Positions 22,069-29,732 of a stretch of DNA of 64,000 nt are shown here, in pieces (position 1 is the stretch's first letter; every line of letters begins with the position of its first letter). A program made the translations under genes and the position numbers. Source of the DNA: Candidatus Helarchaeota archaeon. Lineage in GTDB: Archaea > Asgardarchaeota > Lokiarchaeia > Helarchaeales > RDOG01. Where the stretch lies: contig JAHPZH010000007.1 of assembly GCA_019058315.1 (NCBI GenBank), positions 64,001-128,000 on the forward strand, read 5' to 3'. The notes beneath the pieces were generated by a model. That model ran no database searches. It was not told the origin of the DNA and saw nothing but the letters and a program-made list of their open reading frames with translations.

Positions 22069-22215
22069 TTGGTAAAAAAATGTTGTGTTAGTAATTGCCA
22101 AAAAGTGGTTAAAGAGGGAGAATATAAAGAAATTGGAGGAAAAATTTATTGTATTCAATGTGCAGTTCTTTTATATAGGGAGGTATTAGGTAATATGGGT
22201 GTTCAAATCGATTAG
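22069..22215 (+). CDS. Small LIM/TRASH-like zinc-finger protein (48 aa)
   Basis: Not in ORF track. GGTGA SD, TTG start; MVKKCCVSNCQKVVKEGEYKEIGGKIYCIQCAVLLYREVLGNMGVQID*. Confidence 0.75.
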   Translation: MVKKCCVSNCQKVVKEGEYKEIGGKIYCIQCAVLLYREVLGNMGVQID

Positions 22216-22219
22216 TTCT

Positions 22220-23104
22220 TCAACTTCTTAGGAAATATAACACTTTCCCCTTTGTTTCATCGTCTCCTAATTTGATTTGTCCTTGAACGTCTATTTTTGC
22301 ATTTTTACTTTTCACAGTGGACCAAGCTCCTAATTTACTTAATCCCTCAAAATTAAATAATATTTCTTGGCGTGATCTTAAATCTTCCATACCTTCTACT
22401 ACATTAGGTCCTTCTACTGTAATACGTTCTACTCCACTAAATCCACCCATTTCACGTGGACATGATACTACTAGTTTTTCAATCGGTTTCATTTGTTGTA
22501 TAAAATCTCTAATTACATAAGAGTAAATAGGAACACCTTCAATTTTAGTTTCTAATAATTCTTCTAGTAGTTTAAGACATAAATTTATTCTTATTTTAGA
22601 AACCCCTGATATTTGGATGTAACCATTATTACCTATCAAACACCTTATCCGTTCAATTGAATGATAAACATGAAATTTAAAACCGAGCTCTTCAGTAATT
22701 CTCGGAGATCCTTCAAAATCAAAAACAATATAAAGTCCCAACCCCTCAAATTTATCAAGAGTTAAATTAAAATCACTTTGGATTTTTTTATTCAATTCTT
22801 GAGTTATTTCTTCTTTAAATTCAACTAGATCTGCGATTTTTTCTATTTTTGAAGAATCATATCGATATAATATCCAATTTCTATTTTTAAGGTAGTTCTT
22901 CTCTTTTAATAACCATAAATCTTGAAACTGTTCAGTTGTTAATGTATTTCCTACTGTACTTTTAATAAGTTCAAATTTAGAAAGATTAGTTTCCTTAATC
23001 TTAAATTTCCAATCTTCTAGTAAATTAATTAAATCTTGGCGGTTGATTAGTTTAACTAAATGTCTTACCAATTCGTCTTTTAACTGTATTTTTGTTGATG
23101 ACAA
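22220..23104 (-). CDS. Hypothetical protein resembling kinetochore protein CENP-N/Chl4
   Basis: 294-aa ORF with AAGGTGG SD; colinear motif similarity to human CENP-N and fungal Chl4 (see findings). CDS is well supported; family is inferred by eye. Confidence 0.6.
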   Translation of the reverse strand: MSSTKIQLKDELVRHLVKLINRQDLINLLEDWKFKIKETNLSKFELIKSTVGNTLTTEQFQDLWLLKEKNYLKNRNWILYRYDSSKIEKIADLVEFKEEITQELNKKIQSDFNLTLDKFEGLGLYIVFDFEGSPRITEELGFKFHVYHSIERIRCLIGNNGYIQISGVSKIRINLCLKLLEELLETKIEGVPIYSYVIRDFIQQMKPIEKLVVSCPREMGGFSGVERITVEGPNVVEGMEDLRSRQEILFNFEGLSKLGAWSTVKSKNAKIDVQGQIKLGDDETKGKVLYFLRS

Positions 23105-23447
23105 TTAAACCACCTTATTTTTGAAATTTATAAATTATATGAGTTTGTAAATTTATTCTTCGAAATTATGTAAATAATTTTGTCGATATGTTAAAAAATT
23201 TAGTATTATCCTCATCCTTATAGTTTAAATTATTCTTAGCATCTTTTCTTAATTCATGAACTCTTATTAGTTTTTAAAATAAGTAATAATAAAATCATTA
23301 GAAAAAGATAAAATATGAAAAAATAATTTCAAATAAAACGAAACAAAATTAATTAGTTATAAATAATTAATGTTTTTAGAAGATCGATATCATTATAAAA
23401 TACCATAAAAATATTTCATATAACCAATTCACAAATAGGTATTAAAA

Positions 23448-23984
23448 ATGGGAACATACAAACTGAAGATGTTGCTTATTGGTGATGCTGCTGTTGGAAA
23501 AACATCACTGATAAAGAAATTCATCAAAGGTGCTTTCCAGAAAGATTACAAAATGACAATTGGTTGTGATATCTTTACAAAAGATGTTGAGTTGAATGAT
23601 GGTCAAGATCTCGTAACTCTATCTATTTGGGATATTGCAGGTCAAGATCGCTTTAAATTTTTCCGATCTTCATTCTATCGAGGTTCTGCAGGAGCTATGG
23701 TTGTATTTGATTTAACTCGTTATACTACATTCAACCCAAACGTTGTGAATTGGTTAAAGGAATTATGGTCATTTACTGGGCGAATTCCGATAGTAATTCT
23801 AGGTAATAAAGTAGATTTAATTAATATGAGGGCAGTACGTGCAAGTGACGCACAAGCTTTTGCAGATCAAGTTCCTTGTAATTATATAGAAACTTCCGCA
23901 AAAGAAGGACAATATGTGGATCAATCATTTGCAGCTTTAGCCATGAACATGTTACAAAATATGAAAAATAGAATGACCCCTTAA
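23448..23984 (+). CDS. Rab-like small GTPase (Ras superfamily)
   Basis: GDAAVGKTS, YKMTIGCD, WDIAGQDRF, GNKVD, ETSAK; no C-terminal prenylation Cys. Confidence 0.95.
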   Translation: MGTYKLKMLLIGDAAVGKTSLIKKFIKGAFQKDYKMTIGCDIFTKDVELNDGQDLVTLSIWDIAGQDRFKFFRSSFYRGSAGAMVVFDLTRYTTFNPNVVNWLKELWSFTGRIPIVILGNKVDLINMRAVRASDAQAFADQVPCNYIETSAKEGQYVDQSFAALAMNMLQNMKNRMTP

Positions 23985-24416
23985 TTATTCATTTTCTTCC
24001 TTTAACTTTTTAGATAATTCAACCGGTTTCTCATCCCCTTGAAACTTTACTTTTATTGTAGGTCCTATCCCTAAAATTTTTCGTTGTAAAACTATGAGAT
24101 CATTTCTTGAAAGTTTACTTCTTAATTGATTTTGAGAAATTAAATAGATCAAAGTTTCAGTAATTCTTTCTGCCACTTTTGGATATTTTGGTTTAAGTTC
24201 GTTTATATAATAAATATAAGCATCTGATTCTAAAACAGCTTTCATTATTTTTAGTTTCGCTTCTTCAGTTTCCCCCTCTTTCTTTTTTCTTTCTTCTTCA
24301 AGTAATTTTTGTTTTGATTCCTCTTCTTTAGCATTTACTAAACGTTTTTGAAATTGTTCTAGCCGTTTTTTACGAATTTTTTCTAATTCGTCATCATCTG
24401 TCATTTTAGTTACCAA
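23985..24416 (-). CDS. PDCD5-like DNA-binding protein
   Basis: DDELEKIRKKRLEQFQ... IMKAVLESDA... P.VAERI...LIYL. Confidence 0.75.
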   Translation of the reverse strand: MVTKMTDDDELEKIRKKRLEQFQKRLVNAKEEESKQKLLEEERKKKEGETEEAKLKIMKAVLESDAYIYYINELKPKYPKVAERITETLIYLISQNQLRSKLSRNDLIVLQRKILGIGPTIKVKFQGDEKPVELSKKLKEENE

Positions 24417-26889: not shown

Positions 26890-27444
26890 TCAAACTCTTT
26901 CACGTAAGGTAATCTTCTTTTTTTGGACAATATCTAATATTTCGTGTCCCCATTTCTCAAAATTCTCTTTCTTGGACGTATACCATTTCTGTTTCGATAG
27001 TAATTCATATAATTTGAGACAATTTTCCACCCCCTTCAGTTCTAGCCGAAGATTCTTACCCTTATTTGTCTCGTAAGGACCATACATGTTAATTCCATTT
27101 TTTTTAAAGAAAATCTTTATTTGATTTACAACTCGAAGGTCATTTTCGTTAAAAGTCAAGAAAAAAGTAGGTCGAGGAAAATAATATGAAATTTTTGGTG
27201 AACGAAGCTTAATTTGGATTAATAAATTTCTAAGTTCTTCTAATGATAATTCTTTTATCTTTTCACTTGTAATATAGTCAAGCTTACCATCATGTATGAT
27301 TTCACGGATGATATCATTTTTCTCCAAACTGTTGATATATGCTAAAGTATATTTCTTTCTAGATGTCGAGATTTTTTGAAGTGGAATGGAAAAACATCCC
27401 TTAGCTTCTACAAAACCTATTAACCATATAATTTCAATATCCAA
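26890..27444 (-). CDS. Single-motif LAGLIDADG-family protein, probably catalytically degenerate
   Basis: WLIGFVEAKGCFSI, PTFFLTF...D..V...IK.FF, KKENFEKW. Confidence 0.7.
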   Translation of the reverse strand: MDIEIIWLIGFVEAKGCFSIPLQKISTSRKKYTLAYINSLEKNDIIREIIHDGKLDYITSEKIKELSLEELRNLLIQIKLRSPKISYYFPRPTFFLTFNENDLRVVNQIKIFFKKNGINMYGPYETNKGKNLRLELKGVENCLKLYELLSKQKWYTSKKENFEKWGHEILDIVQKKKITLRERV

Positions 27445-27587: not shown

Positions 27588-29732
27588 ATGCAAACTGGTA
27601 GAAAAGCAAAATGGCTAAGATTGCCTTGTATTAGATGTGCAACAGAAATTCCAGAGTTAATTGAGGGTGTAACCCTTCGATGTTTGCAGTGTGGTTCTGA
27701 CAATACTTTTACAGAGTCGTCTAAATTCTTAGAAAAGCTTTCAAAAGATCATTTAGGCTCAGTTCCAAGTATTGATTTCATCAAAGATCCGGATAAGAGA
27801 GGTACTGCTATACAGACAAGAATGCAAAAATTACAAACTTATTACAATACAATGGATAAAGATTTCGAAGATCTCCAAAAACATGCAATTGTTGCAACCC
27901 CATTAGAGAAATATGGTGTAAGCGGAAGAAAAATTCTTGGATTAACTCAAGGATATAATACAGTTGCAACTTTAATTAGAAATTATGTATTACCCCTAGC
28001 TTTGACTCAAGAAGAATTGGTCCCAGCTCAAGAATTATACTTCAATTCTGCTTATAGAGCATCCCTTAATTTAGGAACATTTCACACAATTGAAGCAAGA
28101 AGAGCTGAATCCAACAAAGATGCAACTAAAAAATACGATAATGCGTCACGAAATTTTAACAAAGCTTCAGAAACAGCACAACATGCTATCGATGCCGGAT
28201 TTGAAGAATTTAGGGCAAAAAAAGCGGTTTCAGATGCTTCATCTAACTATTCCACCGGATTATCAAGTATTACACGTGGTAATCCTGATTATGGCACTCG
28301 GAAATTCAAACAAGTAAGATCTCTATTAGAAGATGTTTTGAGTAGAGAACCCCGTTCTAAGATTGACCATGTTAGAGTAGGAATGATTGTTTCATTACAA
28401 CCATCAGTGAAAATGATCCTTAAACAGCTAAAAGAAGGTAAAAAAGTACGAGAAGCTTCAAAAGTTAGGCTATATCCATTAGATAAATCAAAAGAAATCG
28501 TGGATACTGTTCGTGAAACTAAAGAATGGATTGTAAAACAGAAAGACAGATTTGATGGTATTTTAAAATTTTATTATGATTTAAATTACGGTGAGAAATT
28601 AGACTATACTGATCGATATATTGAAAGGTTTGATGAATTTTTTAAGAACGCACAGACTGTTTTTGATGAAACTGTTCGCGATATCATTACTAATCTCTCA
28701 GATGAATATAATTTCAAGGTAGGTCAATTATACCGGAGGTTAGAAGCAGCTGCAAGAGCAGCGGTATTGCCTGGTGAATCTACTCGTGAACAATTTGAAG
28801 AAGGAAGGCGGGAACTCGAGGCAATTGATGACTTATACAAATCTGTTATGGCAACATTAATTGATGCAACTTATTCTGTCAAAAAAACCGAATTTGCAGG
28901 AACTGCAGACCTCTCCATTAAAAAAGCACACGCTCAATTTGATGACTTAGTTAGAATGGCAATCACGCAACTAATTTTAGATTTTGATGAAAGTACTCAA
29001 CGTGTTTTTGACCGATTGGTACCAATTGCTGATGGAGCAAAGATGCCTGGTGATGAAACAGTTGAATACGTTCGTGATGCACGCGCAGAAGTTGATTCAT
29101 TAGGTTTTACTATATCATCTCTTGTAGATGTTTCCTATACTGTCAAGAGAAAAGAATTCATGGAGAGAATTAAAGCGGTTCAGAAGAAACAAAGAGAACG
29201 ATTCGATACTGTAGTTCGTCGAGCAATACACTCTTTAATTGGAGATTATTATCTCTCAGGTAAAAAAATAGTAGTAACCGCAACACCTATTGCCAGAGCA
29301 GCAGGAGCTCTTGGTGAACGTGCTATAGAGGAACTTACAGAAGCAAAAAAAGATATTGATTCAATTGATGACTCATTAGAAGATTCAATCAATCAACTCA
29401 TTTCATCTGGTTATAATGTGAAACGATATGAATTCCATGAAGATATAATGTTATCACAAATGAATAGAGATCGTGATTTCACAGATTCTATTAGAACTGC
29501 CGTCGAGAGCTTGTTAACATTTACTGCAATGCCTCGATGGAAGATGATTCGCATACGAAAAGACCTAATCTCAAAAGGCGAAACTGCCATGGCAAGAGGA
29601 AAATACGCACTCGCATCTCGTTATTTTGCCGATGCTGCCAAATTATCCTCTGAACTTGGCGAAGTAGACAAAGCAAAAGAGCTAGAAGAACGTGCTCGTG
29701 GTATGGAAAGACTTGCATCTATGATTGGCTAA
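27588..29732 (+). CDS. Zn-ribbon plus alpha-helical repeat protein (714 aa)
   Basis: CxxC..CxxC N-terminus; TPR-like helices; three tandem ~90-aa repeats; C-terminal helical hairpin. Confidence 0.8.
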   Translation: MQTGRKAKWLRLPCIRCATEIPELIEGVTLRCLQCGSDNTFTESSKFLEKLSKDHLGSVPSIDFIKDPDKRGTAIQTRMQKLQTYYNTMDKDFEDLQKHAIVATPLEKYGVSGRKILGLTQGYNTVATLIRNYVLPLALTQEELVPAQELYFNSAYRASLNLGTFHTIEARRAESNKDATKKYDNASRNFNKASETAQHAIDAGFEEFRAKKAVSDASSNYSTGLSSITRGNPDYGTRKFKQVRSLLEDVLSREPRSKIDHVRVGMIVSLQPSVKMILKQLKEGKKVREASKVRLYPLDKSKEIVDTVRETKEWIVKQKDRFDGILKFYYDLNYGEKLDYTDRYIERFDEFFKNAQTVFDETVRDIITNLSDEYNFKVGQLYRRLEAAARAAVLPGESTREQFEEGRRELEAIDDLYKSVMATLIDATYSVKKTEFAGTADLSIKKAHAQFDDLVRMAITQLILDFDESTQRVFDRLVPIADGAKMPGDETVEYVRDARAEVDSLGFTISSLVDVSYTVKRKEFMERIKAVQKKQRERFDTVVRRAIHSLIGDYYLSGKKIVVTATPIARAAGALGERAIEELTEAKKDIDSIDDSLEDSINQLISSGYNVKRYEFHEDIMLSQMNRDRDFTDSIRTAVESLLTFTAMPRWKMIRIRKDLISKGETAMARGKYALASRYFADAAKLSSELGEVDKAKELEERARGMERLASMIG

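Follow-up and report, generated by a model that had tools for sequence, protein, structure and literature searches.

CENP-L/Iml3/Fta1 (PF13092; 7R5V_L, 7PKN_L, 4IT3), a subunit of the inner kinetochore’s constitutive centromere-associated network (CCAN), forms a heterodimer with its paralogue CENP-N/Chl4/Mis15 (PF05238; 6EQT, 6C0W, 7PKN_N, 6QLD_N); structural work has proposed that this pair goes back to a duplicated ancestor that bound DNA as a homodimer and was a relative of RdgC, the bacterial recombination-associated DNA ring (PF04381; 2OWL, 2OWY), and both RdgC and CENP-LN bind DNA (PMC9235857). Within the CCAN, CENP-L is contacted by the pseudo-GTPase CENP-M (PMC12046508, PMC4080450). 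Schwab et al. (2024, PMC11390915) described RdgC-like proteins of Bacillus and Halobacteria, with extra small N- and C-terminal domains, that are encoded in ‘RdgC histone’ operons. Tromer et al. (PMC6601020) reported neither relatives by sequence nor, in Asgard archaea, a segregation system of eukaryotic type. A literature search gave no published Asgard protein resembling CENP-L/N or RdgC, and CENP, centromere and RdgC go unmentioned in the main text of the Asgard structure-mining and chromatin papers that we checked. Here we describe a protein encoded at 22220-23104 of a 64,000-nt stretch of DNA (the window; contig JAHPZH010000007.1, positions 64,001 to 128,000) from a Candidatus Helarchaeota archaeon (assembly GCA_019058315.1; 5.8 Mb, 12 contigs, 94% complete). 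The protein is conserved and single-copy and its predicted shape, though not its sequence, is nearest to those of CENP-L/CENP-N and RdgC, making it a testable candidate for an unduplicated archaeal relative of the kinetochore pair; on predicted structures, we consider it probable that it belongs to a new Asgard family of the CENP-L/N–RdgC fold superfamily and acts as a homodimeric DNA clamp.

The AlphaFold2 model of the window protein (predicted local distance difference test (pLDDT) 80.6, predicted template modelling score (pTM) 0.72) comprises three domains (Table 1), the middle one a curved antiparallel sheet with helices behind it, as in the TBP-like fold at superfamily level. A first-pass annotation, made from the letters alone, had proposed a homologue of CENP-N, and the three parts that it named for the CENP-N fold (a helical N-domain, a TBP-like sheet and a C-terminal dimerization domain) are present in the predicted model. 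When the model was searched against the PDB with Foldseek, places 1-19 were all taken by Iml3, CENP-L, CENP-N and Chl4 (E 6e-7 to 2e-4), with RdgC coming next (E 2e-4). VIA-align, run on 48,161 representative chains and then on Foldseek’s best 1000, scored CENP-L highest (13.5-14.3, with 199-211 residues aligned), followed by Chl4 and Iml3 (each 10.7-11.1), CENP-N (10.3-10.7) and RdgC (9.6-10.0); the next proteins, unrelated but TBP-like, reached 6.1-6.6. The CENP-L/N homology domain (LNHD) equivalent and the C-terminal domain superposed jointly on CENP-L over chain residues 55-341, meaning that the two proteins share the rigid arrangement of these domains. To our knowledge, every characterized protein in this match group (RdgC, YejK and CENP-L/N) is a DNA binder.

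The result was replicated with a member from Heimdallarchaeaceae that shares just ~20% identity with the window protein and whose model was more confident (pLDDT 88.3, pTM 0.84). VIA-align again placed CENP-L first (11.2), ahead of CENP-N (9.5-10.0), Iml3 (9.3), Chl4 (9.0), YejK (8.6) and RdgC (7.5); in Foldseek the five best matches were full-length CENP-N (E ~2e-6), RdgC being about a thousand-fold weaker (E 1.6e-3). CENP-L, CENP-N, Chl4 and Iml3 are therefore the best matches for two independently modelled subfamilies.

Where the alignments start differs between the two kinetochore subunits. Those with CENP-N and Chl4 begin at the first residues of these proteins and so cover the N-terminal helical domain: residue 5 of the model pairs with residue 1 of CENP-N, from where the match continues through the TBP-like domain. 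Those with CENP-L, Iml3 and RdgC begin only at model residues 62-73. The N-terminal helical domain, which stands where CENP-L has an N-terminal extension, aligns with CENP-N and Chl4 only, so the protein has a CENP-N-like front and a CENP-L-like body. The long linker of the eukaryotic proteins is absent, as the annotation had it.

The monomer fold of RdgC is common to the model, and a plain archaeal RdgC-like ring that modulates recombination (RadA/RecA), its CENP-L/N scores arising from slow structural drift or model bias, is the alternative that survives best, at a probability that we nonetheless regard as low. RdgC scores 2.5-4 Z units under CENP-L, and also under CENP-N, in two independent models; the N-terminal helical domain has no counterpart in RdgC, whose own alignments begin at model residues 62-68; and no conserved recombination genes lie nearby at the loci examined.

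Relatives of the protein are confined to Asgard archaea at the level of HMMER searches. Full-length relatives with 40-79% identity are found in Helarchaeota and Lokiarchaeota bins, and remote ones in Frey-, Odin- and Heimdallarchaeota; an exhaustive phmmer search of 1.8 billion cluster representatives returned only 19 proteins, of which those with names belong to Prometh-, Frey-, Odin- and Heimdallarchaeota and to one bin with a bacterial label. A profile search contributes many from Heimdallarchaeaceae. The lone bacterial label among the HMMER relatives belongs to a metagenome bin called ‘Deferrimicrobium’, and no relative from a well-placed bacterium was found by HMMER in the 1.8 billion representatives. 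A family profile was positive in 107 of 400 Asgard-phylum genomes, with one match in each, and was near-universal in nine GTDB families (29/31, 21/22, 11/12 and 6/6 genomes, for example). In a tree of 39 members each GTDB family is monophyletic, with two deep branches separating Heimdall-labelled sequences from those of Loki, Hel, Frey and Odin; distribution and tree together fit vertical descent with losses. In alignments, G221, G224, G232, R245 and G259 are invariant across all members, and residues 207-262 are almost identical among close relatives. Members are mostly basic (median isoelectric point (pI) 9.3 among the 39; above 8 in 34/39). A search for longer, fused forms gave none, which is weak evidence. 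We conclude that the family is conserved, single-copy, Asgard-specific and previously undescribed.

The reading frame proposed by the first-pass annotation, with its 294-residue translation, was confirmed. It opens with a TTG codon, read from the sequence, in a window of ~30% G+C and correspondingly AT-rich; homologues share the start position, aligning at MS(S/T)TK. Convergent on its 3′ end is a 48-residue open reading frame (ORF; 22069-22215, plus strand) that resembles a zinc ribbon in its cysteine pairs, CC..C and C..C, and for which a Pfam search gave no match.

The source genome holds a single family copy, and no paralogue of the window protein was found in it. With one copy per genome there is no pair of the CENP-L/CENP-N type; the Asgard search that had been suggested to find orthologues and CENP-L-like partners hence yielded the former and not the latter, and where CENP-L takes CENP-N as its partner, the window protein is predicted to pair with itself. 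Two-copy prediction with ESMFold2 gave an ipSAE (interaction score from predicted aligned errors) of 0.63 against 0.00 for the best control; at least 88% of contacts are common to the runs, and partner pLDDT is at least 81. At this ipSAE mark 20 of 30 proteins solved as same-chain pairs pass, as does 1 of 23 that were solved as single chains. These counts are only rough, since we supplied an alignment of our own, and resemblance to RdgC or CENP-LN complexes of known structure may explain part of the pass. One predicted interface is a strand within the family’s most conserved motif, residues 207-262, which is also the least confident region of the monomer model (lowest pLDDT); the other is the tip of a long hairpin in the TBP-like domain. 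Two such self-contacts would be expected of a head-to-head, tail-to-tail ring like that of RdgC.

On this basis we propose that two identical chains would pair at the near-invariant C-terminal strand and again at the hairpin tip, giving a two-fold symmetric clamp or ring that would grip double-stranded DNA, like the RdgC homodimer and the CENP-L/N heterodimer, and would do so with the sheets of its TBP-like domains and with its basic N-terminal domains. Dimerization, DNA binding and any relationship by descent to CENP-L/N are what we infer here. The genes for a Ras/Rab-like GTPase and a PDCD5-like protein, which travel with the gene in many lineages, may encode proteins that regulate the clamp or cooperate with it.

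This gene company was examined at 40 loci from 17 GTDB families, together with the window and a Lokiarchaeote contig (42 genomes, 18 families; families are labelled f and loci L below). A GTPase gene lies no more than 400 bp from the family gene in 11/42 genomes and 7/18 families; other GTPase ORFs number just five in 624 kb of flanks, and the source genome has ~109 such ORFs per 5.8 Mb. The two genes are divergent in f1, f2, the Lokiarchaeote (L002), f26 and f27, a layout also present on an independent sediment contig that spans both; in f16 they are co-directional with gaps of 9-39 bp, and in f32 they overlap. In a GTPase tree the neighbours of divergent type form one clade (SH-aLRT, the Shimodaira–Hasegawa-like approximate likelihood-ratio test, 99) and those of f16 and f32 another (90). 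The PDCD5-like gene adjoins that of the GTPase in the Lokiarchaeote and in families f1, f2, f26 and f27. Given that CENP-M contacts CENP-L, a GTPase neighbour is noteworthy, though no proof. From the sole RNA run that holds any part of the stretch, two 151-nt wetland metatranscriptome contigs map to the GTPase gene (23519-23830; 98-99% identity) and none to the family gene.

In f24 and the Heimdall-side families f12-f15, a gene for a Zn-ribbon and winged-helix protein of 131-162 residues lies directly upstream on the same strand, with gaps of up to 471 bp and an ORF overlap in L040; one of these proteins reaches Pfam PCI (E 1.7e-5), the rest giving weak matches. This protein appears to be another conserved partner. 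Families f26 and f27 carry an E2F/DP-type winged-helix gene (PF02319, E 6e-9) that separates the GTPase gene from the PDCD5-like one. Family f27 takes in 1.4-Mb Odin-like genomes; in one f27 genome the adjacent GTPase is broken into ORFs of 95 and 84 residues (L046:8335-8873), which may be a frameshift or a pseudogene. The Lokiarchaeote contig also has an actin-family gene (L002:2051-3472) 2.5 kb from the PDCD5-like/GTPase/family gene cluster. By description, the proteins of the RdgC histone operons resemble the Asgard protein in being prokaryotic, and in part archaeal, members of the RdgC fold that carry additional small domains at their ends, in a chromatin-related setting; in contrast to those operons, no histone gene or transmembrane partner adjoins the Asgard gene at the loci examined.

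The GTPase neighbour could also point to an adaptor, effector or regulator of that small GTPase that does not bind DNA, TBP-like platform domains being found also in adaptin and COPI appendages. We think this improbable: matches to these appendages span the TBP-like domain only and score no higher than background, most family members are basic, the conserved neighbours besides the GTPase (PDCD5-like, E2F/DP winged-helix and Zn-ribbon with winged helix) are of DNA-binding type, and the GTPase neighbour is missing in 11 of 18 families.

Table 1 Coordinates of the features, given in the window unless a locus label precedes them.
Feature	Coordinates	Strand	Details
Family gene ORF	22220-23104	minus	294 codons, stop 22220-22222; conserved single-copy Asgard protein, predicted CENP-L/N–RdgC fold
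Shine-Dalgarno-like AAGGTGG	23110..23116	minus	5 nt upstream of TTG; read directly from sequence
N-terminal four-helix domain	22880..23104	minus	residues 1-75; pI 9.5
TBP-like beta-sheet domain, LNHD equivalent	22529..22879	minus	residues 76-192
C-terminal alpha/beta domain, predicted dimerization domain	22223..22528	minus	residues 193-294; G221, G224, G232, R245 and G259 inside
Most conserved stretch, P.x.KL..x.CPREMGGFSGVERITVEGP.VV.GM.DLRSRQEILFNF.GLSKLGAW	22319..22486	minus	residues 207-262; from alignments
Strand VERITVEGP	22406..22432	minus	residues 225-233; antiparallel self-pairing predicted across two-fold axis; lowest-error pairs 229:229, 230:228, 231:228
Long beta-hairpin tip	22655..22720	minus	residues 129-150; second predicted self-contact; lowest-error pairs 148:139, 147:139, 140:129
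Divergent intergenic region, family gene/GTPase	23105..23447	.	343 bp
Ras/Rab-like small GTPase	23448..23984	plus	Pfam Ras E 2.6e-48; G1, G3 and G4 motifs intact; candidate partner
PDCD5-like double-stranded-DNA-binding protein	23985..24416	minus	PF01984, Pfam E 4.1e-9; conserved third cluster gene
Zn-ribbon + winged-helix loci	L021, L022, L024-L026, L028-L032, L040, L050-L052, L055, L056; e.g. L031:7242-7667		
E2F/DP-type winged-helix gene	L045:10527-10970; also L043, L044, L046		PF02319

A true CENP-N orthologue, which would read a specialized CENP-A-like nucleosome and pair with a CENP-L-like partner, would account for the N-terminal helical domain that only CENP-N and Chl4 align with, and for full-length CENP-N as the best Foldseek match of the Heimdall member. 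CENP-L outscores CENP-N in both models in VIA-align, however, no second family member that could serve as partner is present in any of the 107 positive genomes, and no significant sequence match to CENP-N was found; together with the predicted homodimer and the single copy, which disfavours this reading by itself, these results make orthology very improbable. When the protein was compared by phmmer with the sequences of all PDB chains, human CENP-N included, no CENP-N was listed at E<=10, and the best CENP-N match of the family profiles to solved structures was that of Bombyx (E=0.76, not significant). Pfam CENP-N (PF05238) does not match the window protein; it matches one member in a set of 24 (E=0.19) and no member in another set of 39. 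Pfam RdgC (PF04381) matches 1 of 39 (E=0.056), Pfam CENP-L (PF13092) matches neither the window protein nor any member tested (24, then 39), and the three models give nothing at E<=10 in the source genome. The RdgC model did recover E. coli RdgC among control genomes. Short matches to Opa60 (E 3e-4, 53 residues), ribosomal S6, eL6 and CLIC5 in the solved-structure sequence searches were set aside as chance because they are short and at odds with all of the fold evidence.

The motifs that the first-pass annotation had likened to CENP-N are all in the translation and in the order given (residues 12-34, 55-80, 92-104, 111-127, 207-213 and 228-242), and this colinearity agrees with the structural superpositions. 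As a sequence signal the motif-by-motif likeness does not rise above chance: with best E values of only 0.76, 0.19 and 0.056, and Pfam models empty in the genome, it lacks statistical support, so that first reading is only partly borne out. Its proposal of homology is supported for the predicted superfamily fold and not for CENP-N orthology; ‘homologue of CENP-N’ is too specific, because CENP-L is the best match, RdgC is in the match group, sequence matches are not significant and the gene is single-copy.

An anti-phage defence component akin to the fold-sharing RexA-like or GAPS4b-like proteins is the least probable alternative. GAPS4b_N clusters lie near in protein-language-model features (0.91-0.92) and RexA comes up weakly in Foldseek (E 0.02-0.04), yet PADLOC gives no match, the gene is single-copy, monophyletic per family and syntenic, unlike a mobile defence gene, and its neighbours are of housekeeping or chromatin type.

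Several observations weigh against a family of CENP-L/N–RdgC clamps. The whole case depends on predicted structures; whole-chain TM-scores of the window model in Foldseek are just 0.36-0.49, and neither Pfam, NCBIfam nor PADLOC has a match for the protein or provides a sequence-level link to any known family. Some unnamed ESM Atlas clusters, labelled in part as bacterial (‘Bacillota’), match equally well or better (TM 0.60-0.71) than the CENP-L cluster does (0.53-0.58); they may be genuine bacterial relatives, or members of the family whose taxon labels are poor. Most of the window’s class lacks the family, which is present in 0/14 genomes of f5 and 0/135 of f6, so the gene is dispensable in many Asgards. 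The window’s own member is near neutral (pI 7.6), with an acidic TBP-like domain (pI 5.2). Finally, two f2 genomes (G123 and G125) keep the GTPase and PDCD5-like pair with an unrelated ORF of helix-turn-helix (HTH) and ACT-like type in the family gene’s slot, so GTPase coupling is not obligate. This slot ORF (176-180 residues; L059:4028-4567 and L061:2187-2714) lies between a PALP gene and the GTPase in genomes that lack the CENP-LN-like gene; as a diverged copy of that gene it was rejected, with an hhalign probability of 0.1 and weak, below-cut-off Pfam HTH and ACT matches.

Elsewhere in the window, a free-standing LAGLIDADG_1 homing endonuclease ORF (26890-27444, minus strand; Pfam E 6e-9) has ordinary genes on either side, and a 714-residue protein (27588-29732, plus strand) has an N-terminal CxxC...CxxC, internally repetitive helical segments and no Pfam family. 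A 717-residue protein near the family gene at L003 and L004 is likened to it by length alone.

How the kinetochore originated is unsettled, and the Asgard family bears on this by fitting the proposal that CENP-LN arose through duplication (PMC9235857): it has one copy per genome, a predicted homodimeric state and a predicted fold nearer to CENP-L/N than to RdgC, and it occurs in many Asgard lineages, Heimdall-side groups among them. More tentatively, the family may stand directly ahead of CENP-L and CENP-N as their forerunner before duplication, a homodimeric DNA clamp whose gene was already coupled to that of a small GTPase, foreshadowing the contact between CENP-L and CENP-M; we hold this possible rather than likely, and if it is true, part of the DNA-gripping core of the inner kinetochore would be older than eukaryotes. 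The family could take the place of the proposed ancestor in studies of dimerization, binding to DNA or archaeal chromatin and coupling to a GTPase.
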